From NCBI GenBank assembly GCA_934725735.1, contig CAKVCP010000001.1, positions 1-63,047 on the forward strand: 63,047 bases of DNA, written 5' to 3'. Position numbers and translations under genes: made by a program. The DNA comes from an uncultured Thermoguttaceae bacterium (GTDB lineage Bacteria > Planctomycetota > Planctomycetia > Pirellulales > Thermoguttaceae). The notes below the pieces were generated by a model. It searched no databases, had not been told where the DNA came from, and saw only the letters and a program-made list of their open reading frames with translations. Positions 10,518 through 31,253 of the stretch are shown here, in pieces (positions within the stretch are counted from its first letter, which is position 1; every line of letters starts with the position of its first letter).

Positions 10518-10521
10518 CTAA

Positions 10522-12933: not shown

Positions 12934-12939
12934 CTTTGA

Positions 12940-12976
12940 AGAGCTTCGAGCTTTGGCTTGAAGCTCTTTTTTTATA
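12940..12976 (+). terminator. Rho-independent terminator after tRNA-Ile copy 2
   Basis: agagcttc / gaagctct stem followed by ttttttt. The stem is related to that of the copy-1 terminator. Confidence 0.6.
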
Positions 12977-13006
12977 TCGTGACAGAACGCGAAAAGGAAA
13001 CCGCCA

Positions 13007-14176: not shown

Positions 14177-14220
14177 CGCCGCAGGTAATGGCTTTGTGAA
14201 TGAACGAGGTTTAAAACATT

Positions 14221-16290
14221 GTGTTTGAGTTAGTTAAGCCATTTGAACCGTCGGGGGATCAGCCGTCGGCAATTCGTGAATTAGTCGACTCTTTCCGCAA
14301 AGGCGCGAAACGTCAGACTCTATTAGGGGTGACCGGTTCGGGTAAGACCTTCACAATGGCGAACGTCATTCAAGAGCTTCAGCGACCGACGCTTGTCTTG
14401 TCGCATAACAAGACGCTGGCGGCGCAGCTTTACGACGAATTCAAAGCGTTTTTTCCCAATAACGCCGTGTCGTATTTTGTAAGCTATTACGATTATTATC
14501 AACCGGAGGCGTATATTCCGCAACGCGACCTATATATCGAGAAGGATTCGTCGATCAACGACGAGATCGATCGGTTGCGGTTAGCGGCGACGAGTTCTCT
14601 CATGAGCCGCGACGACGTGATTGTGGTTGCGAGCGTGAGCAGTATCTACGGGCTGGGTTCTCCGGAGGATTATAAGAATCTAACGCTTTATTTTAAGGTC
14701 GGGGAGTCCCTCAATTACAGCGAGACGTTGCGTCGTCTTGTCGACATGCAGTATACGCGCAACGACGCGTCCTTTGACCGCGGTCATTTTCGCGTTCGCG
14801 GCGATACGATCGACGTGCGGTTGTCTTACGAGGAGTTTGCGCTTAGGATCGAACTGTGGGGAACGGAGATCGAGAGTCTTTCGTATTTTGATCCTACGTC
14901 CGGTAAGACGATTAAGACGATCAACGAAGCGTATGTCTATCCAGCGAAACATTTTGTGACGCCGGAGGAAAAAATACGCGAGGCGGTCGTCAAGATCAAC
15001 GCGGAAATGACGGAACAAGTGAAGCGCCTGGAGGATCAAGGAAAGATCTTGGAATCGCAGCGGCTTCTGGCGCGAACTCGGTATGATATGGAGATGCTCT
15101 TGGAGACGGGCGTCTGTCCTGGAATAGAGAATTACAGCGCAATTTTTGAGGGACGCGAGCCGGGTATGCCGCCTAATACGCTCTTCGATTACTTCCCAGA
15201 GGATTTTCTATTATTTATTGACGAATCTCATGTGACGTTGCCGCAGATTCGCGCGATGTACGCGGGGGATCAAGCGCGAAAAAAGAATCTTGTGGAACAT
15301 GGTTTTCGGTTGCCGAGCGCGTTGGACAATAGACCTTTGACCTTTACGGAATGGGAGTCGCGCCTTGACAAAGTGGTATTTGTGAGCGCGACGCCGGGCG
15401 AGTATGAAAAGAGCGCGGCGAATGGTAAAATCGTCGAGCAGTCGATACGTCCGACGGGCCTTCTGGATCCGGAAATCGAGGTTGTCCCCGCGTCGGTTCA
15501 GATAGAACACCTTTACGAGCAGGTTTTAGAGCGTGTCGCGCGTAAAGAACGCGTTCTTGTCACCGCGCTGACGAAGCGGCTTTCCGAAGATCTTGCCGCT
15601 TATTTTGTGAAAAAGAACGTTAAATGTCGGTGGCTTCATAGCGAGCTTGACGCGTTTGAACGCGTGGAATTATTGCGCGATTTGAGGAACGGCGAGTTTG
15701 ACGTTCTGGTGGGCGTCAACCTTCTCCGCGAGGGGCTCGATCTTCCTGAAGTTTCGTTAGTCGCGATACTTGACGCGGACAAAGAGGGCTTTTTGAGAAG
15801 CGAGACCTCGCTGATTCAAACGATCGGTCGATGCGCGCGCAACGCTCGAGGGAAGGTGATTCTCTACGCCGATAAAATGACGGAATCCATGAGCCGCGCG
15901 ATCGCGGAGACCGAGCGTCGCCGAGCGCGTCAAGCGCAGTATAATAAAGAACATGGAATTATTCCCAAGACCGTTTGCCGAAGCGTTAAGGAGGGCGTCG
16001 ACGCGGAAGCGGCGGCGCGAGAACGCGCGAACGCCGTCGTCGGCGCGAATCAGACGACCGAGTATATAACGCTAGAGTATCTCGACGAGTTGCAAAACGA
16101 GATGCTTGAAGCGGCGGAAAAACTCGAATTTGAACGCGCCGCGTATTTGCGCGATAGAATTAACGCGCTTAGAGAAAAAATCGGAACGAAAACGACGGTT
16201 TTTGAATTCGATCAGGCGCAGAAAAAGAAAGGTCGAGGAAGGGGACGAGGCGGCGCGTCACGTTCGCGAATACCGAAACCGGAGAGATAA
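14221..16290 (+). CDS. uvrB: Excinuclease ABC subunit B
   Basis: GDQPSAI, Walker A GVTGSGKTFTMA, helicase motifs, and the C-terminal UVR domain (LEFERAAYLRDRINALREK). Confidence 0.97.
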   Translation: MFELVKPFEPSGDQPSAIRELVDSFRKGAKRQTLLGVTGSGKTFTMANVIQELQRPTLVLSHNKTLAAQLYDEFKAFFPNNAVSYFVSYYDYYQPEAYIPQRDLYIEKDSSINDEIDRLRLAATSSLMSRDDVIVVASVSSIYGLGSPEDYKNLTLYFKVGESLNYSETLRRLVDMQYTRNDASFDRGHFRVRGDTIDVRLSYEEFALRIELWGTEIESLSYFDPTSGKTIKTINEAYVYPAKHFVTPEEKIREAVVKINAEMTEQVKRLEDQGKILESQRLLARTRYDMEMLLETGVCPGIENYSAIFEGREPGMPPNTLFDYFPEDFLLFIDESHVTLPQIRAMYAGDQARKKNLVEHGFRLPSALDNRPLTFTEWESRLDKVVFVSATPGEYEKSAANGKIVEQSIRPTGLLDPEIEVVPASVQIEHLYEQVLERVARKERVLVTALTKRLSEDLAAYFVKKNVKCRWLHSELDAFERVELLRDLRNGEFDVLVGVNLLREGLDLPEVSLVAILDADKEGFLRSETSLIQTIGRCARNARGKVILYADKMTESMSRAIAETERRRARQAQYNKEHGIIPKTVCRSVKEGVDAEAAARERANAVVGANQTTEYITLEYLDELQNEMLEAAEKLEFERAAYLRDRINALREKIGTKTTVFEFDQAQKKKGRGRGRGGASRSRIPKPER

Positions 16291-16597
16291 AAGGCCTTTC
16301 TTCATCCTCGTTGGGGAGGAGCAAGGCAATCTTGCTCTTTCTCCGCATTGCAGCGTTTCTTTCTATTCTTTCTTGCTTTAGTTTGTTCTCGTGAAACGTT
16401 TTTAAAGTCTGCTAGTATAATCCGTACGAATTTATTGGATAACGTCTCTTTGAGAAACTTTACCAGCGCATGATTCTTCGTCGTCTTTTTTAAAAGATAA
16501 ACTAAATATCACGTCTAATACGTTAGAAATTTCAATTTTTTCAACAATTTAGCTTAGAATGGAAAAATTCTTTGTTGAAATATATTTTTTAAGACTG

Positions 16598-16626
16598 TTG
16601 ACTTTTAATAATCGATTAGCTATTAT
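16598..16626 (+). promoter_or_regulatory. Near-consensus sigma70-like promoter in the A/T-rich spacer at the left edge of the accessory array
   Basis: TTGACT (16598-16603), 17-nt spacer, TATTAT (16621-16626). It points toward A1, about 310 nt downstream. Confidence 0.35.
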
Positions 16627-16937
16627 TTAAACAAAGGTTTCCTTGTCCTTCAAAGAAACTTTTGAAAGTCGACAAAGACGTCCGTCCCTATTTATTAGGA
16701 GTCGCGCTATGAAAAGCAGGGCGCTGAGAGTTCAGAATCATATTTTAGAACGTCTAGGCTTTTTCTCCGCCTTCTGGAGGGGAGAGGCGCTGAAAAAGCG
16801 CGTTTCCTCCTGCGCGCTAGCTTTTAAGCTGACAAAATAATTCTCTATCGCTTGGCGTCGTTTGGACTGAGTTTTTTGACTCGAGACGATTGTTCTTTGA
16901 TTTCCTTTAAAACGAGAAGAAGCTGAAGGAGTCGATC

Positions 16938-18119
16938 ATGTTCTTCAAAAATACAGGAATGTTTTATATTCCAGCGTTATGTCTGTTGGCGTTATACGCG
17001 TGTTGCGGGGACTCCGATTTGTCCCAGGACAAGTTTGTTCCTTTCGAAGGGGAATCGCTCTATTCGTCTCCCAACGGAAACGATATTGAGTTAATTTACC
17101 AAAGCGGCGAAGAAGAAAGCGTTGTTGAGACGAAAGTTGTTGCTTTTCCGAAGCGTCTTTCAGTTGGAGATACTTTCTATCTGGCCATATATAATAAAAA
17201 CTTGTCGGATAAAAGGATTAAGTATACGCTAAGTCCCTATTTCTATATTTCGCCTATGCTTTCATCTTCCTTGACGTCAGAAATCTACCAATGGAAGGAG
17301 GAAGTTGTCAACAGAATAAGATGTTTACGAATTTCTGAAGAACAAATTTTAGAGCCAGGCGCCGAAAGGATCTCGAGGAGCTGTTCGTGGGAATTTCCGC
17401 CTCTTGAAGATTGGAATGAGCCATTTTGGAAAGAACTTCGAGAGAAGCTTCCTCCTGAAGGGGCGAGTTGCCAACTACGTTTTTCTTTGACGACGACCGA
17501 AATTCGAGACGATCTCTCGACTGTTAATAGCTCTCACGACGTGGTTTTAGATCTTTGGGTGACGCCGCGTTCTGCAAAGGAAACCCAACTTTTAGAAGGA
17601 TGGCTACACTCGACTCCCGTAGATTTATTGCCCAACGATGTTGGCGACCGCAAAGAACCGAAGAAGATGGAAGGACTTCAGGGGGGCGTTGATCGTAAGG
17701 ACAAAATCAGCGAGGAGATATTGGATCTGAGGATGGAATGTCTCCAGGGGAGCGAGGAGAGTAAGATCAAAATCGGAGAGAACAGATGGGATCCATGGCT
17801 CTTCATTCGAACAGGAAATAGGAAACCGTCCGATCCGAATAATCCGACGACGTTAAAAGGATGGCGGGAATTGGAAGCCCAGTTGTCTCCAAGCGTGATG
17901 CGCGACGAGGTTCGTTTTACTCGACTGCAACTTGAGTATTATGCATCCTCTAGTCAATCCAAAAGAGAAGAGGCGAGAAAAGAACTCGTCGATTGGCTTC
18001 ATTCTTTGCCTCAAGCGCAACGCGTATCAATGGTTTCCAGCTTGAAATCGAAAGGAAATCTGTTCCGCAATACCAAACTACAAAAGGAGTATTTCGAGTT
18101 GATAAACGCGCTTGATTGA
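16938..18119 (+). CDS. Exported family-A paralog A1 (PLEDWN / GNRKPSDPN family, unknown function)
   Basis: RBS GAAGGAG. Signal or lipoprotein-like N-terminus (IPALCLLALYACCG). Motifs FPPLEDWNEPFWKELREKLPPEG and GNRKPSDPNNPTTLKGWRELEAQLSPSVMRDEVRFTRLQLEYY. About 85% identical to A6 over much of its length. Confidence 0.8.
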   Translation: MFFKNTGMFYIPALCLLALYACCGDSDLSQDKFVPFEGESLYSSPNGNDIELIYQSGEEESVVETKVVAFPKRLSVGDTFYLAIYNKNLSDKRIKYTLSPYFYISPMLSSSLTSEIYQWKEEVVNRIRCLRISEEQILEPGAERISRSCSWEFPPLEDWNEPFWKELREKLPPEGASCQLRFSLTTTEIRDDLSTVNSSHDVVLDLWVTPRSAKETQLLEGWLHSTPVDLLPNDVGDRKEPKKMEGLQGGVDRKDKISEEILDLRMECLQGSEESKIKIGENRWDPWLFIRTGNRKPSDPNNPTTLKGWRELEAQLSPSVMRDEVRFTRLQLEYYASSSQSKREEARKELVDWLHSLPQAQRVSMVSSLKSKGNLFRNTKLQKEYFELINALD

Positions 18120-18199
18120 GGATGAAAGATCGATCTAGGTCTTTCACCTAGGGGAAGAAAATGAAAAGAATGTGAGCGACATGTTCTAGGAGGCAAGCA

Positions 18200-19414
18200 A
18201 TGCATAATGCTTCAACGGTCAAAAAGACTCTCTTGGTTTCGACATATCACTTTTACCTTGATCCTTCAAATGGCGCGGCGATAACGACGCGCGAACTTCT
18301 TCATGCGTTGGCGTTACTCGGATGGCGCGTGCATACTTTTTGCGGATGCGCTCTTGATTTTCAAGATAAGAGGAATCCCGTCGAGTTTTTGGAGAGTCGA
18401 GGAATCGCGCCGAAACGAATTGTCGATTCCACTCAAACGGGCGGTTATTCGTTGGTAAATTTTCGAGACGGCGCCATTCATTCGACTTTATTTCTTCCCG
18501 AAGATAATTTTCATAAGCCTTCTCCGCAGATGGGAGAAATGTTTCTTCCTATCTTAAATCAAATCATCGGCGTCGCCAAACCTCAAATACTGGCGACATA
18601 CGGCAGTTATTGGCTAAGCGACCATATTCTTTCGGTCGCCAAAATCAATTCGTTAAAGACCGCTTTCCTTCTTCAGAATCATTCTTATAAGAATCTGAAA
18701 GACTTCGTAAAGGTTGATTTGACCATAACGCCGTCGAATTATACAGCGACTCATTACTCTGAACTTTTGGGACTCCCTTCCACCCCAATTGCTCCGATGA
18801 TGGATTGGGATAGTTTTATTTGCGACCCAACTTCTATGAAACGCAAGTATGTCGTGATGGTTAATCCTGAACCGAGCAAAGGGGGACTTTTAGTAGCGCG
18901 AATAGCGCATGAATTATGGAAGCGTCGCCCAGAGATTCCAATTTTGCTGGTGGAAGGAAGAGCCAAAGCTTCATGGTTGAAGCTTGCGGAGATTGATTGG
19001 ACTGGCGTTCGGAATGTCAATGTTATGGAATGTACGACAGATCCGCGCGATTTTTACAAAGAAGCGTATCTTGTTATTGTTCCTTCTTATTATCTAGAGA
19101 CTTTTTGTCGTGTCGCGGCAGAAGCTATGGCAAATGGAATTCCTGTTATTGTCAGTTCCCGAGGCGCGTTGCCTGAAGTTGTGGGAGACGCCGGTATTAT
19201 TTTAGACATACCGGCGAGATTGTTGGAGAATGATAAATTAACCCCCACGATAGGAGAGTCTGAAAAGTGGGTGGGGAATATTATTCTTTTATGGGACGAC
19301 AAAGAACTTTACGAGGATTATTCCCGACGCGCTCGGGAACGCGCTCAAAGATGGCGTCCTGAGATTATCGCGGCTCGTTACGACAACGCGCTAAGCGCCT
19401 TGATTGGGAGGTAA
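18200..19414 (+). CDS. GT4-family glycosyltransferase (GT-B fold)
   Basis: RBS AGGAGG. C-terminal motif ETFCRVAAEAMANGIPVIVSSRGALPEVVGDAGIIL is typical of Glycos_transf_1. Confidence 0.85.
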   Translation: MHNASTVKKTLLVSTYHFYLDPSNGAAITTRELLHALALLGWRVHTFCGCALDFQDKRNPVEFLESRGIAPKRIVDSTQTGGYSLVNFRDGAIHSTLFLPEDNFHKPSPQMGEMFLPILNQIIGVAKPQILATYGSYWLSDHILSVAKINSLKTAFLLQNHSYKNLKDFVKVDLTITPSNYTATHYSELLGLPSTPIAPMMDWDSFICDPTSMKRKYVVMVNPEPSKGGLLVARIAHELWKRRPEIPILLVEGRAKASWLKLAEIDWTGVRNVNVMECTTDPRDFYKEAYLVIVPSYYLETFCRVAAEAMANGIPVIVSSRGALPEVVGDAGIILDIPARLLENDKLTPTIGESEKWVGNIILLWDDKELYEDYSRRARERAQRWRPEIIAARYDNALSALIGR

Positions 19415-19513
19415 ATCTTCAAAGAACGACAGTGGAGCGCCGGATTATCAAAGCCCTATTGAATTGGCGTAGAACGGCGCGTCCAGGAGAATAAATTGTG
19501 TTTATGTTTTGAT

Positions 19514-20946
19514 ATGCTTCAAGCGTCCTGGGGGATCCGAGACGTTTGAAGACGTTCAATTGTTATTTTTACAGGACGACGACTGAATTGTGTCGTCGTC
19601 GTATTGTCCCTTTTTTTACTGAAGGAGTATTGAATGATTTGTATTAGTCATTTAATTGCAGTGGCTTTCAAGCGCCGGAATCCTTTGCATAAACGAAAGG
19701 ACTCGTCGTTGGCTAAGCAGACGACGCGCAAATTGCGGCTTGACGCCCTTGAGTCGCGCAACCTGCTTTCTTGCGCAGGATTCGCCGATCCGGGAGTTCT
19801 GACCGAATCTTTGGATAGTTCGATTGCCGAGTGTCGCGCGACTGAAGCGATCGCCACTCCGCGAGACGCCGATGTGATCTATTTCGATCTTGACGACGCG
19901 CCGTTCTACGGCCCGCTTCCCAAAGAGGCTCACGAAGCCTACAGGAGACTGATTCAAAAGGGGAGCGCGCTTTCTGCGGCGGAATCCGACGCGATTGTCG
20001 AGACTCATTCCCATGATAATACGCTCGAACCTGCCGAACGCGTTAAGCCGTTAGCAGCGAGTCAAGCGTCAATCAAGGAGTATAACTTCGACGCTGAAAC
20101 GTTCGACGTCGGCGGGACGACATATTCGTCTGGCTCCGGAGGAAGCGGTAGCGATAGCGGAGGCGGCGGCTCCAGCGGCGGTTCGACGTCGGGAGGCTCG
20201 ACGTCTAGCGGCGGAACGCATGAGTACTGCTCGCATAATCCTTGGCTTTGCGGCGGTCTTGGAAGCTCTAGTTCTGGAGGAGCTTCCGGCGGCAATTCGA
20301 AACCAGGCTTTTATCTGATAACGGATGATAGCGACGAAATAGTCCTAGTTCTTAACGCCGGCGACGAAGACGAAAATAGCGAGCAAAATGAAAATTTGCA
20401 GCTTGTTGCGTCCAACTTGCCCGTTAAGGAGGTCATTCCTACGAAGAATGGTACAAGTTATAGTTTTACGGTGAAGCTGGATGTTAGTTCTTATGGAACG
20501 ATAAACGGTTCCTTCAAGGTAGTCGACTGCGACGGTCGTGAAAGCCCTAGCGTGGACGTCTGCGTTCGTCCCGTAAAAATCACAGGATTTGAGATTCAGG
20601 AAAAGGCGCCAGGCGCTGAAACCTTTACGTCTCTTGAGGACGACCATGTCGTATGGCAAGAGAATTTGAATCGTGTTGGCTTCAATGTGTTAGGCGATAT
20701 TGACGGAGACGATCCCGACGATTGCGCGGCGTTTATGAGCCTTTTTACTTATCAAGTAAAAGGTCAAGCGTGGACGTGGGATTCGACGGAGAACGACTAC
20801 GTTCGTTCTAATACCTGGAATAGCTTTAACGGCCTTAACGGCGGTTTAGGCGTATACAATCTAGAGATTGATCTTTACGCAAATAATCAGAAATTTAAAT
20901 CGCTGCCTGATAATGATCGTTATTGCTTTAACGCAGTTTCGAGCGT
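19514..20946 (+). repeat. Segmental duplication, copy 1 (leader plus first ~438 codons of the protease gene)
   Basis: Offset to copy 2 is 3867 nt. There are 4 mismatches in the first ~21 nt, then no mismatch found by eye from 19535 to 20946 (1412 nt). All overlapping ORF translations in the track are identical between the copies. Confidence 0.9.
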
Positions 20947-22126
20947 CGCCTGGGAAAACGCGCCAATCGTGTCGACTCCAGGGGAGACTTCTTCTCATTT
21001 GAATTTAATTTCTGACGGTTCCAACGGGGTTAAGGCTTTTGTCGAACAACCGTTGAATACGTCGACAGGCGCATTGAATCCGGAGAAGAATATTGCGACG
21101 GCACGAGTGACGCTTGCTGTGCAACTTCCAGCTGGCATGACGGGAACGGTACACGTCGATTGGTTTGATCCCGATAATCCGATTGGTAGTACGATAACGG
21201 CGAGCGGATATGGGAAAGGAAAACGCGACAATCATGGCACAATTAGCCAGATTAGTAGCAATGTCTTGACGTTTGACGCCCAAACAAACACCCGTCTTCT
21301 TACGTTGACGATAGACGGGGGATATGCCGGCGATAATTATATATTAGCGGCGCATCCCAATTTGGGGGTTATGGGGCGAGCGGAAGTTCGCAATAATAAC
21401 GTAGTGGTTCCAGTGATTGACAACAACGCGTCTGGGGGTTCGTCTAGTAGCGGCGGAAGCTCTGAAGGCGACTATGCGTATGTTACCCTTGATAAAACCT
21501 CAATGCTTACCGTATGGCGCTCGTTGTGGGTGGAACGTGATCAGATGACTTATACTTCTGTGACTGGAAGTGTGGAAATCGCCGATCCCGTACCCATAGA
21601 TGGTATTGTTAGTTCCGAACTGGCTAGAGGATGTATAACGATCAGAGGGTATTCTCCTAATACACGTCCGACGGTTCCAGGAATTTATTCTTATGGTAGT
21701 ACGGAGGAATCCCAAAATTATACAGAGTCTCGCGATTTGGCTATGCCCACCAATACGTCGTGGACGTTGTTGTCTGTAGGAGGTTTTAAGTCTGATATCT
21801 GCGCTGGTTTCTTTGTGAGCAACAACATCGTGGTTTTCTCGGATTTAATCGTTGATGAAGTTCAAGACTGGAATAGGGATCATGAGACAACTTACTCCGC
21901 TTCAGACGCTGTAAGACGTACTGCATTGCATGAAATCGGTCATGCTTTTGGTTTGGGAGACATTACACTGGATGAAGGGGAAGAGATAACAGACGATCAC
22001 GTTGGCATTATGGTAACGGGGGCAGGATTTGATTGGGATTACCGCATGGCTCCTGAAAATATGGCTTTTACTATTGATAATCTTCAGCAAATACAAAGTC
22101 GGCTTTGCCCTGTGGGCAATTTCTAA
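19634..22126 (+). CDS. Large extracellular-type protein MP1: LExRxLL N-terminal motif, G/S-rich linkers, C-terminal metzincin-like Zn-protease module
   Basis: RBS GAAGGAG. N-terminus RKLRLDALESRNLLS. G/S tracts (SGSGGSGSDSGGGGSSGGSTSGGSTSSGG; ASGGSSSSGGSS). HEIGHAFGLGD (HExxHxxGxxD) followed by HVGIMV (Met-turn candidate). Confidence 0.85.
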   Translation: MICISHLIAVAFKRRNPLHKRKDSSLAKQTTRKLRLDALESRNLLSCAGFADPGVLTESLDSSIAECRATEAIATPRDADVIYFDLDDAPFYGPLPKEAHEAYRRLIQKGSALSAAESDAIVETHSHDNTLEPAERVKPLAASQASIKEYNFDAETFDVGGTTYSSGSGGSGSDSGGGGSSGGSTSGGSTSSGGTHEYCSHNPWLCGGLGSSSSGGASGGNSKPGFYLITDDSDEIVLVLNAGDEDENSEQNENLQLVASNLPVKEVIPTKNGTSYSFTVKLDVSSYGTINGSFKVVDCDGRESPSVDVCVRPVKITGFEIQEKAPGAETFTSLEDDHVVWQENLNRVGFNVLGDIDGDDPDDCAAFMSLFTYQVKGQAWTWDSTENDYVRSNTWNSFNGLNGGLGVYNLEIDLYANNQKFKSLPDNDRYCFNAVSSVAWENAPIVSTPGETSSHLNLISDGSNGVKAFVEQPLNTSTGALNPEKNIATARVTLAVQLPAGMTGTVHVDWFDPDNPIGSTITASGYGKGKRDNHGTISQISSNVLTFDAQTNTRLLTLTIDGGYAGDNYILAAHPNLGVMGRAEVRNNNVVVPVIDNNASGGSSSSGGSSEGDYAYVTLDKTSMLTVWRSLWVERDQMTYTSVTGSVEIADPVPIDGIVSSELARGCITIRGYSPNTRPTVPGIYSYGSTEESQNYTESRDLAMPTNTSWTLLSVGGFKSDICAGFFVSNNIVVFSDLIVDEVQDWNRDHETTYSASDAVRRTALHEIGHAFGLGDITLDEGEEITDDHVGIMVTGAGFDWDYRMAPENMAFTIDNLQQIQSRLCPVGNF

Positions 22127-22161
22127 TCACTGGATTCAAACAATAATAGAAGGTGAAAATC

Positions 22162-23361
22162 ATGCAAGCGTCAGTTCTTTTTAGCCTGTTTGCCTCGCTA
22201 TTGACGATCTTGTGGGGAGGATGGAGTAACGTAGGATATGCCGCAGAGTATCTTCCTGTCTCGGGAGAAGAATTGAACATTCCCCTCGCTCGTGAGTCGA
22301 CGGAGGATCTCTCGCTTGAGCGCACTCTGGCGATTTTCCCGGCTGAGGTTTACTTTGGCGATTCATTGTACTTGCTCCATTGCGACTTTAACAAATCAGA
22401 CTCAACGCTGAAAGGTCTTATGGATTTGCCATATTCTTTACGCGTTGGTTTTAACGGAGTCCAAATCACGTCAGAGCTCTCTGAATATTCTTACGAATAT
22501 GTTTTCGAAAAACAAAATAGTTTTTTGGATGACGCTCTTTATTCGTACAGACCCGATAGATTTTTACCGGGCGAACGAAAAAGTGGATTCTATACGATCA
22601 TTGATTTGCCCCCCTTAGAGGATTGGGATGATCCTTTTTGGAAGGATATACGAGAGAAAATGACTCCAGAGGGAATTGCGTGTTCTTTAAGCTTTCGAAT
22701 CTCTGTTGGACGATTCGCTTTGGCAGACGCCCCAAAAAATGTTGAGTCTTCGCCTGCCGAAAGGAAGTTGACTACGACAGAGAATGTTAAGGCGTCCTTT
22801 GTGATCAAACCTCGTCCAAACGATGAACTATCGCTCTTAGAAAAGTGGTATAACAACACGCCCAAGGAATTGTTTCCAGTAAGGAAGGGGTCTTATAAGG
22901 TTCCTTCAAGTGGGAGCGTCATTCCTGATAATAAGGAAAGTCACATCAAGGTGGGGGATAAGGATTTTTCCCCATGGCGTTTGATTCGAGTCGGAAATCG
23001 CAAACCCTCCGATCCCAATAATCCGACGACGCTAGAGGGATGGCAGAAGCTTGAAGCGCAATTATCGCCCAGTACGATGCGCGACGAGATTCGTTTAACG
23101 CGTCTTCAATTGGAGTACTATTCAGCCGACAGCGAAGAACGTTCTGAATACTGGAAAAACGAGCTGGTAAATTGGCTTTCAACTCTTCCAGAGTCTCAAC
23201 GAACGGCGTACGTTGGAATGATCTGGCGTCAAGGCGTTGGTCAGACAATTCCGGAATATTCCAGTAAGAGTAAGGCTTTGACGATTGCTCTTGAACCGCT
23301 TATGGGAGACGGAACGAAGTATTTTTTTAAAAAGGTAGAAAAACTTTACAGACAACCATAA
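22162..23361 (+). CDS. Exported family-A paralog A2
   Basis: Starts 36 nt after the MP1 stop (ATG 22162 with GAAGGTG RBS; the ORF track uses GTG 22153). Has a signal peptide, LPPLEDWDDPFWKDIREKMTPEG, and GNRKPSDPNNPTTLEGWQKLEAQLSPSTMRDEIRLTRLQLEYY. Confidence 0.8.
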   Translation: MQASVLFSLFASLLTILWGGWSNVGYAAEYLPVSGEELNIPLARESTEDLSLERTLAIFPAEVYFGDSLYLLHCDFNKSDSTLKGLMDLPYSLRVGFNGVQITSELSEYSYEYVFEKQNSFLDDALYSYRPDRFLPGERKSGFYTIIDLPPLEDWDDPFWKDIREKMTPEGIACSLSFRISVGRFALADAPKNVESSPAERKLTTTENVKASFVIKPRPNDELSLLEKWYNNTPKELFPVRKGSYKVPSSGSVIPDNKESHIKVGDKDFSPWRLIRVGNRKPSDPNNPTTLEGWQKLEAQLSPSTMRDEIRLTRLQLEYYSADSEERSEYWKNELVNWLSTLPESQRTAYVGMIWRQGVGQTIPEYSSKSKALTIALEPLMGDGTKYFFKKVEKLYRQP

Positions 23362-23380
23362 GTCTATATTAGTTTTTGCA

Positions 23381-24813
23381 ATGCTTCAGACGTCTTGGGG
23401 TATCCGAGACGTTTGAAGACGTTCAATTGTTATTTTTACAGGACGACGACTGAATTGTGTCGTCGTCGTATTGTCCCTTTTTTTACTGAAGGAGTATTGA
23501 ATGATTTGTATTAGTCATTTAATTGCAGTGGCTTTCAAGCGCCGGAATCCTTTGCATAAACGAAAGGACTCGTCGTTGGCTAAGCAGACGACGCGCAAAT
23601 TGCGGCTTGACGCCCTTGAGTCGCGCAACCTGCTTTCTTGCGCAGGATTCGCCGATCCGGGAGTTCTGACCGAATCTTTGGATAGTTCGATTGCCGAGTG
23701 TCGCGCGACTGAAGCGATCGCCACTCCGCGAGACGCCGATGTGATCTATTTCGATCTTGACGACGCGCCGTTCTACGGCCCGCTTCCCAAAGAGGCTCAC
23801 GAAGCCTACAGGAGACTGATTCAAAAGGGGAGCGCGCTTTCTGCGGCGGAATCCGACGCGATTGTCGAGACTCATTCCCATGATAATACGCTCGAACCTG
23901 CCGAACGCGTTAAGCCGTTAGCAGCGAGTCAAGCGTCAATCAAGGAGTATAACTTCGACGCTGAAACGTTCGACGTCGGCGGGACGACATATTCGTCTGG
24001 CTCCGGAGGAAGCGGTAGCGATAGCGGAGGCGGCGGCTCCAGCGGCGGTTCGACGTCGGGAGGCTCGACGTCTAGCGGCGGAACGCATGAGTACTGCTCG
24101 CATAATCCTTGGCTTTGCGGCGGTCTTGGAAGCTCTAGTTCTGGAGGAGCTTCCGGCGGCAATTCGAAACCAGGCTTTTATCTGATAACGGATGATAGCG
24201 ACGAAATAGTCCTAGTTCTTAACGCCGGCGACGAAGACGAAAATAGCGAGCAAAATGAAAATTTGCAGCTTGTTGCGTCCAACTTGCCCGTTAAGGAGGT
24301 CATTCCTACGAAGAATGGTACAAGTTATAGTTTTACGGTGAAGCTGGATGTTAGTTCTTATGGAACGATAAACGGTTCCTTCAAGGTAGTCGACTGCGAC
24401 GGTCGTGAAAGCCCTAGCGTGGACGTCTGCGTTCGTCCCGTAAAAATCACAGGATTTGAGATTCAGGAAAAGGCGCCAGGCGCTGAAACCTTTACGTCTC
24501 TTGAGGACGACCATGTCGTATGGCAAGAGAATTTGAATCGTGTTGGCTTCAATGTGTTAGGCGATATTGACGGAGACGATCCCGACGATTGCGCGGCGTT
24601 TATGAGCCTTTTTACTTATCAAGTAAAAGGTCAAGCGTGGACGTGGGATTCGACGGAGAACGACTACGTTCGTTCTAATACCTGGAATAGCTTTAACGGC
24701 CTTAACGGCGGTTTAGGCGTATACAATCTAGAGATTGATCTTTACGCAAATAATCAGAAATTTAAATCGCTGCCTGATAATGATCGTTATTGCTTTAACG
24801 CAGTTTCGAGCGT
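23381..24813 (+). repeat. Segmental duplication, copy 2
   Basis: See copy 1. The identity block is 23402-24813. The first difference after the block is gagcgtCgcc versus gagcgtTgcc. Confidence 0.9.
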
Positions 24814-26026
24814 TGCCTGGGAAAACTCTCAAGAGTCGTTAACTCCAGGGGAGACTTCTTCTCATTTGAATTTAATTTCTGACGGTTACAACGGCTATAA
24901 GGCGTTTGTCGAACAACCGTTGAATACGTCGACAGGCGCATTGAATCCAGAGAAGAATATTGCGACGGCACGAGTGACGCTTGCTGTGCAACTTCCAGTC
25001 GGCATGACGGCGACGGTATGTGTCGATTGGTTTGACCCCGATAATCCGATTGGCAGTACGATAACGGCGAGCGGATATGGAAAAGGAAAACGCGACAATC
25101 ATGGCACAATTAGCCAGATTAGCAGCAATGTCTTGACGTTTAACGTGGTAACGGGACCCCGCTCCGGCTTCGTTACGTTGACAATTAACGGGGGATATGC
25201 CGGCGATAATTATATATTAGCGGCGCATCCCAATTTTGGGGTTATGGAACGGGCTGAAGTTCGTAACAATAACGTAGTCGTTCCAGTGACCGACAACAAC
25301 GCGTCTGGCGGTTCGTCCAGTAGCGGCGGAAGCTCTGGAGGCGACGACGCTTATGCAGCTTTCCTTGATAAAACCTCAATGCTTACCGTATGGCGCTCGT
25401 TGTGGGTGGAACGGGATCGGATGACTTTCACTTTCCCAACTGAAAGCGTGCAAACAGCTGCTTCTGTTTTGATTGACGGAATCGTCGAAACTCAATTAGC
25501 TCGTGCCTGCGTTGATGTGAAGGAATATTCTCCTAATAACTTTGTGTTGGTTCAAGGAGTGGAAAAGGATGATCCGCAGGCGTACTGGGGAAATTATCTT
25601 ACGTATCGTGATTGTCCTGTTTCGTCAAATTCATTTTGGGCTATCTATTCGATCGGCGCTTTTAATACAGTAAGAGGCGCTTGTGCAACACGGGGGGGAA
25701 ATACCTTGGTTGCTTATAACTGGAATATCGCCGCTGAGCTTGCCAAGTGGAATGACAAGCATCCGAACTCTACGATTTCAGTCGCTTCCTTGCTCAATCG
25801 AAGGATCATTCTTCATGAACTGGGGCATTTTTTGGGATTGCAAGACGGCTCCACCGGAGTTATGTGGTCGGAAGAAAAGGAGGAGGATGAGGATCTTAAT
25901 CTTCAAGCTCTAATCGATTCTGAAAACATCGTGTTCACGATCGACAACTTGAAAACGATTCAATCGCAAAGTATGCCAATCGTCGTCCAGGGGTTTGAAG
26001 ATTATCTTTTGCGACATAAGAACTGA
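23501..26026 (+). CDS. Large extracellular-type protein MP2: same N-terminal ~438 aa as MP1, divergent C-terminal metzincin-like module
   Basis: Relative to MP1, aa 1-~438 are identical, ~439-640 are about 85-90% identical, and the last ~200 aa are strongly divergent. HELGHFLGLQD (HExxHxxGxxD) followed by GVMW. Confidence 0.85.
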   Translation: MICISHLIAVAFKRRNPLHKRKDSSLAKQTTRKLRLDALESRNLLSCAGFADPGVLTESLDSSIAECRATEAIATPRDADVIYFDLDDAPFYGPLPKEAHEAYRRLIQKGSALSAAESDAIVETHSHDNTLEPAERVKPLAASQASIKEYNFDAETFDVGGTTYSSGSGGSGSDSGGGGSSGGSTSGGSTSSGGTHEYCSHNPWLCGGLGSSSSGGASGGNSKPGFYLITDDSDEIVLVLNAGDEDENSEQNENLQLVASNLPVKEVIPTKNGTSYSFTVKLDVSSYGTINGSFKVVDCDGRESPSVDVCVRPVKITGFEIQEKAPGAETFTSLEDDHVVWQENLNRVGFNVLGDIDGDDPDDCAAFMSLFTYQVKGQAWTWDSTENDYVRSNTWNSFNGLNGGLGVYNLEIDLYANNQKFKSLPDNDRYCFNAVSSVAWENSQESLTPGETSSHLNLISDGYNGYKAFVEQPLNTSTGALNPEKNIATARVTLAVQLPVGMTATVCVDWFDPDNPIGSTITASGYGKGKRDNHGTISQISSNVLTFNVVTGPRSGFVTLTINGGYAGDNYILAAHPNFGVMERAEVRNNNVVVPVTDNNASGGSSSSGGSSGGDDAYAAFLDKTSMLTVWRSLWVERDRMTFTFPTESVQTAASVLIDGIVETQLARACVDVKEYSPNNFVLVQGVEKDDPQAYWGNYLTYRDCPVSSNSFWAIYSIGAFNTVRGACATRGGNTLVAYNWNIAAELAKWNDKHPNSTISVASLLNRRIILHELGHFLGLQDGSTGVMWSEEKEEDEDLNLQALIDSENIVFTIDNLKTIQSQSMPIVVQGFEDYLLRHKN

Positions 26027-26074: not shown

Positions 26075-27532
26075 ATGATAAAAAAATTTTGGAGAGTTCC
26101 CGTCGTCGCGGCTCTTCTGGCATGCTTATGCGTTTTGAACAGGGCTCCCGCCGATAGCTATGTTCCTCAATCAGCCGAAACTGCTACGTTTAAGGGAATC
26201 CGTCATGATGGGGACAAATCGGAATGGTCGTTTGAAATTTTTCCTAAGGAAATGACGTATGGCGATTTCGCGTATGTTCTTGAACGCAGAACCAACGTCT
26301 CTGGCGAGACGATCAAGAATTATCCGATTTTCGGGGATCCGTTCGTCAAAGTTTGGGAAGAGCCCAATTCTGTTGTCCTAACGGCTGAAGGGATCGAGGG
26401 AGAATATCGTTGGAAGCAGGAGTACCCGTCGAGTTTCGAGAGCGATTACTTTTGTTTCGATGGTAAGGATCTCGCCCCAAACGAAAGCGTGATAAAATCG
26501 AGACTAGTTCTCGATTTTCCCCCTGTGGAGGATTGGAACTCGCCATTTTGGAAGGCTTTACGCGATAAGGTAACCCCCGAAGGAATTAAATGTTCGTTGA
26601 AGTTTAATTATCCTCACTCCTTGAAAACAGAAGACAAGTCTCGTCCAAAATACGTGCAAGAAAGCGTTTGTTACGAATTTCTCATGAAATCAAGGCCTGA
26701 AAGTGAAATGAGTCTCTTGGAAGATTGGGTTAAGGCGTCAAGCGACAAATATCTTCCGTATGAGACGGAGTGGAAAAAATTTTGGAAAGGCCGAGGAAAG
26801 AAGAGTACAAATCAGATTTCTCTTGGGTTAAACAAGTATAATGTGAGCTCCTTTGTTAGACTTGGAAATAGAAAACCGTCTGACCCGAACTCTCCGACCT
26901 CGCTGAAAGGGTGGCGGGAACTTGAATCCAGCCTAGCCCCAAGCTCGATGCGCGACGAGATTCATTTAACTTGTCTTTTGCTGGAGTACTACGGTTCGAT
27001 TACTAACAAAGGGAAAGCTGAATCAAGCCGAAAAATAGCGGATTGGTTGGCGAGTTTGCCTGCCCCTCAGCGCGTAGCGCTGAGCTCTTATTTGGTTACC
27101 GACGGCGAGAGCCTTTGCGACGAGAGTCTCAAGGAAGATTACTATAAGTTGACGAGGGCTATCTACAATCTCTTGGAGCCTTCCGCTCAACGCGTCGTAT
27201 ATCAGCGCGAGTATGATAGGGGAGAGGAGTCTTTACTGGTTCCGCCGACCGGAATGGTGGTACAACGCACCCTTGAGGACGATATTCGACCGACCGCCGA
27301 AGATTTCGCCCAGGGCAAATGCGAGCTTGCCGACGGTTTTCGATTGACGACGCTAACCGGACCGTCGAAAACGATTCCGGCTGTTCTGAAATTCGTTTCC
27401 TATGACGCCGAAACACAAATGGCGACGATGAGAACTCGATCAGGATATCCATTATACTTTTCTCTCAATGAATTTAGCGATCAGGATCGATTGTACATCT
27501 TGGAGGAAAGTAAAAAGAGCGTGAAACCGTAA
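26075..27532 (+). CDS. Exported family-A paralog A3 (long form with C-terminal SHD1-like extension)
   Basis: Starts 49 nt after the MP2 stop. Lipobox-like LLAC. FPPVEDWNSPFWKALRDKVTPEG; GNRKPSDPNSPTSLKGWRELESSLAPSSMRDEIHLTCLLLEYY. Has an extra ~130 aa C-terminal region. Confidence 0.8.
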   Translation: MIKKFWRVPVVAALLACLCVLNRAPADSYVPQSAETATFKGIRHDGDKSEWSFEIFPKEMTYGDFAYVLERRTNVSGETIKNYPIFGDPFVKVWEEPNSVVLTAEGIEGEYRWKQEYPSSFESDYFCFDGKDLAPNESVIKSRLVLDFPPVEDWNSPFWKALRDKVTPEGIKCSLKFNYPHSLKTEDKSRPKYVQESVCYEFLMKSRPESEMSLLEDWVKASSDKYLPYETEWKKFWKGRGKKSTNQISLGLNKYNVSSFVRLGNRKPSDPNSPTSLKGWRELESSLAPSSMRDEIHLTCLLLEYYGSITNKGKAESSRKIADWLASLPAPQRVALSSYLVTDGESLCDESLKEDYYKLTRAIYNLLEPSAQRVVYQREYDRGEESLLVPPTGMVVQRTLEDDIRPTAEDFAQGKCELADGFRLTTLTGPSKTIPAVLKFVSYDAETQMATMRTRSGYPLYFSLNEFSDQDRLYILEESKKSVKP

Positions 27533-27544: not shown

Positions 27545-27665
27545 GTAAAGCAATGCATGAAGAGGTAACGCTCAAAATCCGCTCTTGGATTGGAGGCGTC
27601 GCTCCTATTTCATCCCCTAATAGGACGGCGATAACGACGCGCAAGCCTCTTCATGTATTTGCTTG
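27545..27665 (+). pseudogene. Decayed 5' fragment of a GT4 glycosyltransferase paralog
   Basis: Aligns with the RBS and first ~40 codons of the 18200 gene (aagcaatgcat...ggcgataacgacgcgc...cttcatg). It encodes MHEEVTLKIRSW...AITTRKPLH and then stops. Confidence 0.7.
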
Positions 27666-27700
27666 CCGGTGGCAAACACAACGTTTGTAGTGGAAATGAA

Positions 27701-28891
27701 ATGAACAATAAATTTCTTATCCTGACGTTTCTATGTCACATGTTTCTGGGCGCCGTTGATGAAAAATTTGCGTCGCTCTTATTAGCCAACGACTCAATTA
27801 AGGTTATTGAGTTTCCTTCGGAAATTATGCCGGAAGAGACGCAAATTAGGAAGTATTCTGAGATATATCCCACAGAATTACATTTAGGCGATCCTATTTA
27901 CATTGTTACCTATGTTGAAAATCTTTCCGACCACGATATCAAGATATGGCCGAATTATCAGACTCCGTATAATAATGTGGCATATGATAGGCACAGCGTT
28001 TTTAGCGACGGAATAGACGGAGATTATTTTTGGATTACAGAGAGTCCTGTTCCTACTTCCGGCTGTCGCTATTATCCTCCGCTATGGTTAAAACCTGGGT
28101 GTAAAGCTATCGATAGTTGCGCTGTTCTTGAATTTCCTCCTCTTGAGGATTGGAACAAGCCTTTTTGGACTAATTTGAAGGAAAAAATGCTCGCCAACGG
28201 CGAGGTTTCATGCACTTTACGCGTCAACTTTACCAATGCCAAAGAACGGACGGTTCAAAATGAAGCCGAAGTTGAAACGCCGACTGAGTCAACGCCGCGA
28301 TTAGACGTTGACGAGTCGCTTGTGCGCGACGTTTCTCTGAAGGTGATGAAGAGTTCAACGTTTTTTCTTGACGTCTGGAGCCAGGAGATACCGGAAGAAT
28401 TTCTTCCGGAAGATTTTCCTCAGAATCAAACATGCTTTTATAAGAGTTCCAGGGATATTGACGCGATGTTGAAGATCATGCCGCAGATAAAGATCGGAAA
28501 TTCTTATCTCTATTATGACAACGTCGTGAGAGCCGCTTTTCGGAAGCCGCCTACGACCAAATTCCCGTCGACTATTGAGAAATGGCGGCAACTTGAATCG
28601 TTTTTTTCCGGCTCTTTAAAGGACGAGTTCACCTATATTCGGATGGCGTTAGAATACTATGACGCTCAGGAGGGGAAAGAGTCGGATATCGCTTTGCAAA
28701 AATTGCTGTCTTGGATGAAGAATCTCCCTTTCCCTCAATTGTACGTAATGGCTAAACTTCAAGTTTTACAGATTGAAAGGCATATTAGTCCGGAACTACC
28801 TAAAGAGAGCGGATTGCGCCCCAAGAGGACTAGGTTGCATGAAGAACTTAATTCTCTAATACAGACTTGTGAAGCTCATGTCAACGATTGA
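27701..28891 (+). CDS. Exported family-A paralog A4 (most divergent member)
   Basis: The likely start is MNNKFLILTFLCHMFLGA (ATG 27701); the track start at 27653 lies inside the GT remnant. FPPLEDWNKPFWTNLKEKMLANGEVSC; degenerate core FRKPPTTKFPSTIEKWRQLE...LKDEFTYIRMALEYY. Confidence 0.75.
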   Translation: MNNKFLILTFLCHMFLGAVDEKFASLLLANDSIKVIEFPSEIMPEETQIRKYSEIYPTELHLGDPIYIVTYVENLSDHDIKIWPNYQTPYNNVAYDRHSVFSDGIDGDYFWITESPVPTSGCRYYPPLWLKPGCKAIDSCAVLEFPPLEDWNKPFWTNLKEKMLANGEVSCTLRVNFTNAKERTVQNEAEVETPTESTPRLDVDESLVRDVSLKVMKSSTFFLDVWSQEIPEEFLPEDFPQNQTCFYKSSRDIDAMLKIMPQIKIGNSYLYYDNVVRAAFRKPPTTKFPSTIEKWRQLESFFSGSLKDEFTYIRMALEYYDAQEGKESDIALQKLLSWMKNLPFPQLYVMAKLQVLQIERHISPELPKESGLRPKRTRLHEELNSLIQTCEAHVND

Positions 28892-28908
28892 ATAGAGGTT
28901 ATTTGAAC

Positions 28909-28939
28909 CGCCGGTAATTTTTTTAGGAAATTACCGGCG
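28909..28939 (+). other. Perfect 12-bp stem-loop at the junction between A4 and the protease remnant
   Basis: cgccggtaattt / aaattaccggcg with a 7-nt loop. No downstream T-tract, so it is not a canonical terminator. Confidence 0.4.
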
Positions 28940-29117
28940 CTACTTGCCATATTATTGCATGAAATTTGGATTGGCAGACGTTGACGTCTCTGAACTTGGT
29001 TACGGGAAGCGGTTGGTTTCACAGACTGCTTCCTGACAATCTAAGTTTCACGGTAGATAATCTTCACCTAATTCAGGAAAGACACGAACCTGTGACAAAT
29101 TTCTCCATCATTGAGTG
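28940..29117 (+). pseudogene. Decayed 3' end of a metzincin-like protease paralog
   Basis: ttgcatgaaatttgg (LHEIW) aligns to the LHEIGH motif of MP1, with an internal deletion that destroys HExxH. PDNLSFTVDNLHLIQERHEPVTNF aligns to the MP1 tail PENMAFTIDNLQQIQSRLCPVGNF. Confidence 0.7.
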
Positions 29118-29150
29118 AGACCCATCAGTATAACTAACATGAGGTTTAGA

Positions 29151-29885
29151 ATGAAACCAACGAAGCGCTTTCTTAGGATCTTAACGTTGTTTGCGACGCT
29201 TTGCTGCTTGACTGTTGGAGCGCTGGCGAAAGGCGAAGAGTATGCGCCTTTTTCCGGTCAGGAATTGGACGCTGAAGCTCCGAGGTTTCAAGACGGCGTG
29301 AAACGCGGCGTTTTGACGTATCCGTTCGAAACGTACTATGGCGATTCTCTTTACATTCTAAGTTATCGAGTTAACGAATCTGGTGAAACGATCCGTAATT
29401 TTCAAAAGGAAAGAATCGTCGGGCATAATCTACATTTTTACGAGGTAACAATAACCTCAAAGGATATAGATTTGTCGCATGAATGGGCGTTTGAACGTCA
29501 AAGCGTTTATGCAGGCGACGTTAAATATGCGTTTATGCCTGGAAATTTTGAACCGGGCGTAAGAGAAACAGGTTTTTATACGGCGCTCGATTTTCCTCCC
29601 CTTGAAGATTGGAACGATCCCTTTTGGAAGGATTTACGAGAAAAAATGACGCCTGAAGGCGTTAAGTGCACTCTAAGTTTTCGCCTTGGAGTAGGTCATG
29701 CCTTTTGCAGCCGTCGAGTTTCTCTTCATGAACTTGGGCATGCCTTTGACTTGATGGATAAAACGGCAGAGCAAGATAAGGGGGTTATGTCGTACAAAGG
29801 TATATATACGGGATTGTCTCCTGAAAATTTGGAGTTTGAAGATTTTGAACTTCGGTTGATTCAGTCTAAATCAAAACCTGTCTAA
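29151..29885 (+). CDS. Chimeric ORF A5: signal peptide plus N-terminal half of family A, fused to the last ~60 aa of a metzincin-like module
   Basis: Family-A sequence runs up to FPPLEDWNDPFWKDLREKMTPEGVKCTLSFRLGVG. It is followed by HAFCSRRVSLHELGHAFDLMDKTAEQDKGVMSY...ENLEFEDFELRLIQSKSKPV (HExxH, Met-turn and protease tail). The GAGG RBS favours ATG 29151. Confidence 0.7.
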   Translation: MKPTKRFLRILTLFATLCCLTVGALAKGEEYAPFSGQELDAEAPRFQDGVKRGVLTYPFETYYGDSLYILSYRVNESGETIRNFQKERIVGHNLHFYEVTITSKDIDLSHEWAFERQSVYAGDVKYAFMPGNFEPGVRETGFYTALDFPPLEDWNDPFWKDLREKMTPEGVKCTLSFRLGVGHAFCSRRVSLHELGHAFDLMDKTAEQDKGVMSYKGIYTGLSPENLEFEDFELRLIQSKSKPV

Positions 29886-29929
29886 AACGCTTATGAACGT
29901 CGTTTAAGTGTGTATGGTAGAGGATAATC

Positions 29930-31006: not shown

Positions 31007-31144
31007 CAGGAGCTTTAGAAAACATCCATTAATATAAATAAACTTCGCAGATCTCGAACGAGGAGCCAGAATTAAATAGGCTGTATGGAGATCTGACAAA
31101 TGTTTGAGGATAAATCGGGGAGTCGTTATTTAGGTCGCTTTCCG

Positions 31145-31216
31145 TATATGGCGGCTCCTTTTCTAACTTGTTTATGGTTTACTTTTGTCAGGGCTTGCTG
31201 TCGAGTTGGACGGTTT
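31145..31216 (+). pseudogene. Possible highly decayed protease 3'-end remnant upstream of A7
   Basis: One frame reads YMAAPFLTCLWFTFVRACCRVGRF, compared with the MP1 tail YRMAPENMAFTIDNLQQIQSRLCPVGNF (shared Y.MAP, FT., C.VG.F). The similarity is weak. Confidence 0.3.
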
Positions 31217-31253
31217 TATGGAGTCTACGACTTGTTTAGAAAGAAGTTTGATA

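Follow-up and report, generated by a model that had tools for sequence, protein, structure and literature searches.

Among the closest described systems are the polymorphic toxin systems with orphan cassettes, such as CdiA-CT/CdiI and Rhs-CT/RhsI (Zhang et al. 2012, PMC3482391). The locus described here lies on contig CAKVCP010000001.1 of an uncultured Thermoguttaceae bacterium (assembly GCA_934725735.1), of which the stretch from position 1 to 63,047 was analysed (63,047 nucleotides (nt); hereafter "the window"). Two neighbouring protease genes, designated ProtA and ProtB, share a perfectly identical 5' block and end in different C-terminal metalloprotease (metzincin) domains, and each of them is followed by a member of a paralogous gene family that we call X. 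The explanation that we hold to be reasonably probable, on the evidence of sequence, is that these genes are tandem paralogues in a hypervariable island, that each protease is coupled with a type-specific X protein acting as inhibitor or immunity partner, and that the paralogues recombine with one another.

As in the polymorphic toxins, a conserved N-terminal and central part is joined to a hypervariable C-terminal domain, a conserved demarcation block in front of the variable part would provide a recombination anchor, and a co-varying gene lies directly downstream. Orphan modules and stubs follow further downstream (X4, a type-C stub with X5, X6, and smaller remnants), and modules are exchanged between strains. 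Unlike in the polymorphic toxins, the variable domains here belong to one metzincin family instead of unrelated folds, the demarcation motif belongs to the domain itself, the partner is an exported protein of 360-485 amino acids (aa) from an undescribed family, and the second copy is complete with its own leader and is not a 5'-truncated orphan; there are no type V, type VI, or type VII secretion systems (T5SS, T6SS, T7SS), and no Rhs or filamentous repeats. In other words, the architecture seems to work like a polymorphic toxin system but fails two of its features, the varied folds and the trafficking module.

With respect to the enzyme and its partner, the nearest analogue appears to be the serralysin-inhibitor operon. 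In AprA/AprI and PrtC/Inh, serralysin-type metzincins are encoded next to periplasmic inhibitors, which are beta-barrels of about 10 kDa and are not polymorphic. There, as here, a secreted M10 metzincin stands beside an exported and possibly neutralising protein; however, X has no sequence or fold similarity to the serralysin inhibitors, and the serralysin systems have no orphan arrays. The acquired interbacterial defence islands of gut Bacteroidales carry arrays of immunity genes, and such arrays are also described as polyimmunity loci (Zhang et al. 2012, PMC3482391). The X family resembles both in having toxin-free tandem arrays of 3-7 genes and fused double-X proteins in gut bacteria, and differs in that the arrays consist of one family, that some X genes occupy core-genome positions, and that immunity is here a proposal from sequence. 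Fragilysin (BFT, M10C), from the gut commensal Bacteroides fragilis, is likewise a small M10-type metzincin that is secreted and occurs in isoforms; unlike ProtA and ProtB, it has its own pro-domain, has no cognate downstream partner or cassette array, and targets the host. The metallopeptidase toxin domains Tox-MPTase1-5 and Tox-HopH1, some of which have been reported in planctomycetes (PMC3482391), share with our proteins the position of an HExxH domain at the C-terminus of secreted multidomain proteins, whereas the best matches here, unlike Tox-MPTase, are M10 and reprolysin-type metzincins. The literature searched yielded no description of the metzincin module or the X family, and none of a system of this kind in Thermoguttaceae.

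The core of the locus consists of the following features (RBS, ribosome-binding site).

19535-20946, + strand: identical block, copy 1 (leader, RBS, and codons 1-438 of ProtA)
23402-24813, + strand: identical block, copy 2 (leader, RBS, and codons 1-438 of ProtB)
19634-22126, + strand: ProtA, 830 aa, with RKLRLDALESRNLLS near the N-terminus, Ser/Gly-rich linkers, a beta-rich middle, and a type-A metzincin C-terminus
19727-19771, + strand: RKLRLDALESRNLLS motif of ProtA
21506-21541, + strand: LTVWRSLWVERD in ProtA, the invariant start of the C-terminal module
21542-22126, + strand: type-A C-terminal metzincin domain, with HEIGHAFGLGD at 21929-21961 and the Met-turn candidate GIM at 22004-22012
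22153-23361, + strand: X2, 402 aa, with a signal peptide; cognate partner of type-A C-terminal domains
23501-26026, + strand: ProtB, 841 aa, with LTVWRSLWVERD at 25382-25417 and a type-B metzincin (HELGHFLGLQD at 25814-25846, GVM at 25856-25864)
26075-27532, + strand: X3, 485 aa, with a lipoprotein-like signal; cognate partner of type-B C-terminal domains
27653-28891, + strand: X4, an orphan that belongs with a D-type protease; it shares 96.7% identity with the X found behind the D-type gene of the related contig L004

A word-indexed search returned nine homologous clusters, one of them from a Thermoguttaceae metagenome-assembled genome (MAG). Contigs coding for the nine homologues were compared with the window, and in 15 loci every open reading frame (ORF) was classified against the window genes. 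In the related contigs, the island always lies between uvrB and a GNAT acetyltransferase gene, and its content differs. At least five C-terminal types (A-E) occur on one backbone across the strains, each with its own kind of X behind it.

Type A (window, L001, L009-11): followed by an X2-type gene
Types B, B', and B'' (window, L002, L006, L013, L014/15): followed by an X3-type gene
Type C (L003, L012; stubs in the window, L004, and L005): followed by an X5/X1-type gene
Type D (L004/5): followed by an X4-type gene
Type E (L006-8): followed by its own X

This type-to-type pairing of protease and X holds in all 15 loci, with no exception. The first-pass annotation, made from the window only, had proposed that the C-termini are switched like cassettes, and the five or more types on one backbone bear this out, as does the near-isogenic L004, which carries a D-type gene instead. 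The distinct 3' modules of which it spoke are indeed exchangeable types, but all of them belong to one protease family and are not unrelated modules; the cognate downstream X genes and the orphan and decayed cassettes had been missed.

The same association extends beyond the close relatives. Reference genomes (gut Thermoguttaceae and related "Planctomycetaceae" MAGs) contributed 61 more loci, in which X lies directly downstream of 16 of the 17 domain-carrying ORFs. Identity between C-terminal domains is correlated with identity between X proteins (Mantel test on 19 pairs, r=0.80, p<=5e-4), and the partial Mantel coefficients were 0.74 for domain and X given the upstream 250 aa and -0.08 for the upstream part and X given the domain. 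Protease and X are inherited, exchanged, and lost as a pair. Between types, the C-terminal domains show 28-47% identity, and within types A, B, and C the upstream 250 aa show 87-96%. The types are old and the backbone is young: the synonymous divergence (dS) of the A and B domains from each other has reached saturation at 3.1, compared with 0.08 upstream. Between close alleles, the ratio of non-synonymous to synonymous divergence (dN/dS, omega) is 0.57-0.85 in the domain versus 0.31-0.38 upstream, and 0.47-1.31 in X3 alleles, values that are suggestive of diversifying pressure on the domain and on X3.

How a cassette is replaced can be read from the comparison of the window with L004. The two are 94-100% identical up to about 20300, 95-100% identical from about 27700, and 100% identical from 28643 to 34000; between about 20300 and 27700, the window contains the rest of the A gene, X2, the B gene, and X3, whereas L004 contains the rest of its D-type gene, which places the right junction of the replacement at about 27700. 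X4 of the window is therefore the partner that the displaced D-type protease left behind. L009, L010, and L011 have 400 nt between X2 and X3, which contain the leader and the first 55 codons of a protease gene and, directly joined to them, the final few bases of such a gene. Therefore, the tandem pair exists in other samples, an intact X3 outlasts the loss of its protease, and orphan X genes come about when a protease is lost. It should be mentioned that the 400-kb scaffold of L006 has a decayed cassette between its two protease units (13784-16344), composed of X fragments of 151 and 220 aa, a protease N-terminus of 185 aa, and a 191-aa C-terminal domain of another type, and that an X1-like gene follows it.

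Gene conversion between the copies, decayed cassettes downstream, and a raised dN/dS in the domain would also be seen if the C-terminal domain were a surface-exposed target of host antibodies or of phages and the silent cassettes were a reservoir for switching, as in pilE/pilS. Such antigenic or receptor variation is very improbable in our opinion: the downstream remnants are short and decayed and do not form a usable silent library, and neither the obligatory co-varying X nor the X-only arrays would be explained.

As to the protease itself, 17 members of the domain were scanned with Pfam. Peptidase_M10 matches 13 of them weakly (best 8e-8), and none matches the Tox-MPTase models; the curated Pfam threshold was missed by both window proteins, with 14-17 bits against a cut-off of 24 for ProtA and no match for ProtB. 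In a profile search against the PDB, the best match was the catalytic domain of MMP-16 (E=1e-5), covering the zinc helix, the Met-turn, and the C-terminal 'LxxIQ' helix, and further matches were found to serralysins (E about 5e-4), MMP-12, fragilysin (E=1e-3), and EcxA. Because of the MMP-16 profile match, the weak Peptidase_M10 matches, and the absence of Tox-MPTase matches, the C-terminal domain can be regarded as a probable divergent and unnamed subfamily of M10-like metzincins. The elements that never vary are its start, L-T-V-W-R-x-L-(W)-x-E-x-D, a single Cys, a single Trp, HExxH, and a Gln within the final helix. In the zinc motif HExxHxxGxx(H/D), the first H, the E, and the second H are invariant, the G is nearly so, and the third ligand is either His or Asp; a Met (M176) about 20 residues past the zinc motif is also invariant in C-terminal domain alignments that include the distant members from the reference genomes. 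The same metzincin domain recurs in each of the 11 close homologues and in every distant member.

In an exhaustive HMMER search, 237 clusters reached E<=1e-10 and 1052 reached E<=1e-3. The domain nearly always forms the very C-terminal end of the protein, behind varied N-terminal architectures, and most family members begin with an 'LExRxLLA/S' motif, which may be a planctomycete export signal, or with a Sec or lipoprotein signal. Many members have a Gly/Ser linker directly ahead of LTVWR. Because this motif is invariant and preceded by such a linker, it probably marks where the metzincin module begins on its N-terminal side, as seen in more than 200 family clusters. In the first-pass annotation, the segment had been placed where polymorphic toxins carry a pre-toxin demarcation motif; the divergence does start directly after 21487-21545, but the segment is probably part of the metzincin module and not a separate pre-toxin domain. 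The AlphaFold2 (AF2) model of full-length ProtA, built on an 11-sequence alignment, was unusable (predicted local distance difference test score, pLDDT, of 32).

The X proteins are a paralogous family of 360-485 aa with signal-peptide or lipoprotein-like N-termini, and they share the motifs FPPLEDWxxPFW and GNRKPSDPNNPT. X1-X4 have no Pfam match at E<=0.1, NCBIfam gave nothing meaningful (for X1 only, E=0.0065 and 15 bits against a cut-off of 440 bits), and PADLOC had no match for X2 or X3. In the AF2 model of X2 (pLDDT 85, predicted template modelling score 0.86), a signal helix precedes a beta-sandwich (residues about 40-220), and then come a small beta unit and, at 294-399, a bundle of six helices. 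The hypervariable segments of X (residues 81-140 and 181-220) fall in the beta-sandwich, and residues 141-180 and 261-360 are strongly conserved. Two thirds of the X genes have no adjacent protease, and elsewhere there are protease-free arrays of 3-7 X genes as well as fused double-X proteins; the X proteins of about 800 aa are tandem double-X proteins and not X-GT4 fusions. Directly downstream of argC, an X gene is found in seven Thermoguttaceae genomes (L043, L045, L048, L051, L052, L053, L054), in three of them as a double-length tandem X. In one protein, P0205 (1169 aa), the metzincin module (497-718) is followed in frame by a complete X including its own signal peptide; this is a fusion of both cassette genes by read-through or loss of a stop codon.

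These observations are consistent with the following scheme. The unit of variation would be a two-gene cassette, the metzincin domain plus the X gene behind it, and homologous recombination in the 5' and central portions of the protease genes, which are conserved, would swap cassettes from strain to strain; for types A, B, and C, a block of about 60 nt coding for the LTVWR motif may serve as an additional anchor. Displaced cassettes would then decay downstream into orphan X genes and stubs. The proteases are presumably secreted and act outside the cytoplasm, and each X would be an exported, type-specific binding partner, most likely an inhibitor or immunity protein, so that orphan X genes could protect against the proteases of neighbouring strains. 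The locus would be a polymorphic toxin-immunity-like system in which the variants differ in specificity and not in fold. We infer that X may neutralise its cognate protease and that the system may serve competition between strains. A wider proposal, which we put forward tentatively, is that gut Thermoguttaceae conduct inter-strain warfare or kin discrimination through a system specific to their lineage, with an LTVWRxLWxExD metzincin as the "toxin" and with X as a new class of type-specific metzincin inhibitor, and that exchange, orphan arrays, and gene conversion both create and maintain the specificity types.

Strict adjacency and the co-variation of domain and X would fit equally well if X were a private helper of the protease. 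Lif, a dedicated helper of lipases, is a model for such a role: X could be a steric foldase, a pro-domain acting in trans, or an export partner, and the proteases could be nutritional or directed at the host (mucin, IgA), so that the types would reflect substrate or host pressure. The large size of X, its export, its strongly conserved motifs, and its helical domain agree with this alternative, as do the X genes at conserved housekeeping positions (e.g., argC) and the life of the organism in animal guts. We nevertheless regard a helper as unlikely. Two thirds of X lack an adjacent protease, the protease-free arrays of 3-7 X genes and the fused double-X proteins are difficult to reconcile with it, and intact orphan X genes are kept after the loss of the protease (X4 in the window; X3 in L009 and L003), whereas a helper without a client should decay. 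An inhibitor or immunity protein is preferred to a foldase or export helper because orphan X genes persist and X-only arrays exist.

Several observations weigh against the proposed protease-immunity system. The C-terminal variants are all of one fold, unlike in classical polymorphic toxins, and in the N-terminal 620 aa of the proteases no Pfam or NCBIfam domain exceeds the curated cut-offs and no known trafficking module is recognised, only the conserved 'LExRxLLS/A' motif that other family members share. For an immunity protein, X is large, and some X genes are conserved residents of the core genome, which hints at a role beyond immunity. In a Foldseek search of the PDB, the X2 model matched only generic beta-sandwiches of the arrestin-like or COPI-appendage kind, with template modelling scores of about 0.2. 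The place of LTVWR within the fold is suggested by invariance and the linker only, and omega is below 1 in most comparisons.

The identical block provides a view of how the two paralogues exchange sequence. Positions 19535-20946 and 23402-24813 agree at 1412 of 1412 positions, at an offset of 3867 nt, and a perfect repeat of 1.4 kb is far beyond chance. The 5' start of the block (19535) is the first homology between the two intergenic regions, with a few mismatches in 19502-19534 and no similarity beyond, and its 3' end is a cluster of mismatches (12 of 28 positions, 20947-20974). In the global alignment, residues 1-438 of the two proteins are 100% identical. In the second step, residues 439-638 are 87% identical (89% over the 601 nt of 20947-21547, with 9 gap columns), and in the third, residues 639-830 are only 36% identical (50% over the approximately 580 nt of 21548-22126), with HExxHxxGxxD kept in both. 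The three sharp steps agree in every number with what had been read from the letters: a block without a mismatch, about 600 nt with 85-90% protein identity, and a distantly related end of about 190-200 codons that retains the zinc motif. The block begins with a shared leader (19535-19633 and 23402-23500), in which one structure stands out.

19574-19602, + strand: hairpin of 9 bp, rich in G+C (GACGACGAC/GUCGUCGUC); downstream of it come a U-run and the GGAG RBS

The leader also contains a short AGACGTT direct repeat, has a minimum free energy of -27.5 kcal/mol (z = -2.1), and has no Rfam match. The hairpin could be an attenuator or a stabiliser. In the decayed copy of L009, the hairpin is kept and the RBS has mutated from GGAG to GGCG.

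The history of the block is indicated by L001 (ENA ERZ27286956, k141_589637), a short-read contig of 23,491 nt (k=141), whose position 1 is position 1 of the window and which ends about 100 nt into the second copy of the repeat. The window is probably from an assembly of the same strain with its upstream break at the same point. From 9634 to 23500 (13.9 kb), L001 is the same as the window apart from 20324-20864, where 79 differences are concentrated, a 9-nt indel among them; the L001-type patch lacks the 9-nt insertion AACGGCCTT near 20830. Within this patch, ProtA is identical to ProtB and matches B orthologues at 88-99%. Conversely, the first approximately 790 nt of ProtB are identical to the A orthologue of L001, and the B orthologues are only 92-97% identical to them. 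In other words, the block has an A-like part (19535-20323), a B-like patch (20324-20864), and a shared 82-nt anchor (20865-20946), and is therefore a composite of exchanges and not a single fresh duplication. The paralogues are identical where the orthologues of the sister strain differ, which points to gene conversion. Of the two origins offered in the first-pass annotation, recent duplication or ongoing conversion, the patch supports the second, whereas one fresh duplication does not account for a mosaic block. Further downstream, types A, B, and C agree almost completely over nt 21487-21545 (about 100% identity, also at synonymous sites), and the divergence begins directly after; in types D and E, the peptide of this segment is kept and its synonymous sites differ, and these types have separated from A, B, and C already at about 20590. 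It is the layering of these exchange points that gives the "stepwise" identity profile. Homologous recombination between the two full-length paralogues within the genome would account for the exchanges, of which the block probably contains at least one recent B-to-A replacement (20324-20864). This last step would be best explained as gap repair, with the identical stretches on either side, 789 and 82 nt long, as anchors.

A recent tandem duplication of the whole protease-X unit followed by replacement of the 3' part, with no gene conversion and a block that is merely young, would be compatible with the tandem order and the sharp boundary. We consider it highly improbable, given that the block is A-like for 790 nt and then B-like for about 540 nt when set against the orthologues, and that L001, identical elsewhere, has no B-like patch in ProtA, a contradiction that holds unless L001 or the window is mis-assembled. 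In other strains, moreover, the decayed second copy differs by 7-10% from the 5' end present in the same locus, and the duplication is therefore old.

A second objection concerns the assembly, namely that an assembler or polisher collapsed or mis-phased two similar 5' regions and wrote one mosaic consensus into two real paralogues. No other assembly contains exactly these ProtA and ProtB proteins, so that the perfect identity rests on this one, and L001, which has a different ProtA patch and is otherwise identical, crosses the repeat unbroken at k=141. A mosaic of A-like and B-like parts is the expected outcome of mixed bubble resolution, and the coincidence of the window start with the start of a short-read contig means that a similar assembly may underlie the window. 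On the other hand, a 63-kb sequence that spans two identical copies of 1.4 kb is hard to obtain without long-range information, a patch that differs by up to 25% and a 9-nt indel is too much for polishing, and the ends of the block match natural limits of homology. Mosaic alleles are also common in independent assemblies (e.g., L009_A and L013_B' are 99-100% identical over 20290-20887 and 83-96% elsewhere), and the tandem arrangement is confirmed by the decayed second copy in L009, L010, and L011. An artefact thus seems to us rather unlikely. It also speaks against conversion that no 5' homogenisation of co-resident paralogues is seen in L040 or L006, where the copies are much more diverged. 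The converted junction and an A-specific 59-mer were not found in a metagenome contig collection, from which the species seems to be absent, so that this search is uninformative.

The whole island is a stretch of low G+C content at about 16.3-33.9 kb (17.6 kb; GC 0.42-0.49 versus 0.55-0.61 in the flanks), bordered directly on the left by uvrB and on the right by the GNAT gene. All of its genes are on the + strand, in the order X1, GT4, ProtA, X2, ProtB, X3, X4, chimeric ORF, X5, frameshifted X6, and GNAT. Besides the core listed above, it comprises the following features.

16938-18119, + strand: X1, 393 aa, with a lipoprotein-like signal; very similar to X5, and of the partner type of C-type proteases
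18200-19414, + strand: GT4 glycosyltransferase, 404 aa (Pfam Glycos_transf_1 3e-14, GT4-conflict 4e-7)
28996-29103, + strand: A-like fragment left from the 3' end of a protease gene (53% over 38 aa, tblastn), just 5' of the X2-like fragment
29115-29885, + strand: chimeric ORF, an X2-like N-terminal half (29163-29700) and the last approximately 60 codons of a type-C protease (29706-29882)
29930-31006, + strand: X5, 358 aa, of the partner type of C-type proteases
31185-32719, + strand: X6, X3-like, split by a frameshift into the ORFs 31185-31559 and 31667-32719
32753-32860, + strand: remnant of a GT4 N-terminus (64% over 36 aa, tblastn)
32905-33045, + strand: remnant of an X C-terminus (tblastn)
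33316-33894, + strand: GNAT acetyltransferase, the right-hand border of the island in all related loci

The chimeric ORF is a deletion relic of a third cassette; its type-C part still has a zinc motif (HELGHAFDLMD, 29727-29759), and the same ORF is found in L004 and L005. X6 is a probable pseudogene. In almost every related locus, the GT4 gene is the direct 5' neighbour of the leading protease gene, and one may speculate that its product glycosylates the Ser/Gly-rich linkers of the neighbouring proteases. Its GT4-conflict match was considered as evidence for a conflict system and rejected, because it is weaker than the generic GT4 matches. A scan for promoters and terminators gave background level only.

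Outside the island, a second stretch of low G+C content (44740-48121, GC 0.43-0.47) contains genes for a McrB-like AAA_5 GTPase (696 aa) and McrC (451 aa, Pfam McrBC 4e-47), and is probably another acquired island with a methyl-cytosine restriction system. Two tandem tRNA-Ile(GAT) genes (12670-12745 and 12859-12934), separated by about 190 nt, lie 3.4 kb 5' of the island and precede an oxidoreductase gene and uvrB. On the opposite strand at 38498-42645, about 4.6 kb from the island, there are a gene for a type II secretion system (T2SS) protein K-like product (771 aa) and a gene for a 610-aa product with no Pfam match, and both are syntenic across the related loci. Also on the - strand, at 7161-10517, a protein of 1118 aa has a 3-keto-disaccharide hydrolase-like domain, a hydrazine-synthase-alpha middle part, and a cytochrome c motif, an unusual combination of domains that is conserved in the related loci.

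The locus appears to be a clean natural case of layered gene conversion in which a near-isogenic "before" state is at hand. If the proposed protease-immunity system is real, the logic of polymorphic toxins and their immunity proteins would extend to an almost unstudied group of gut bacteria, and also to an extracytoplasmic pair of protease and inhibitor that varies in specificity and not in fold. It would bring to light two sizeable unnamed families, with about 240 or more metzincin clusters and 160 or more X clusters, and X may point to a new type of natural and highly specific metzincin inhibitor.

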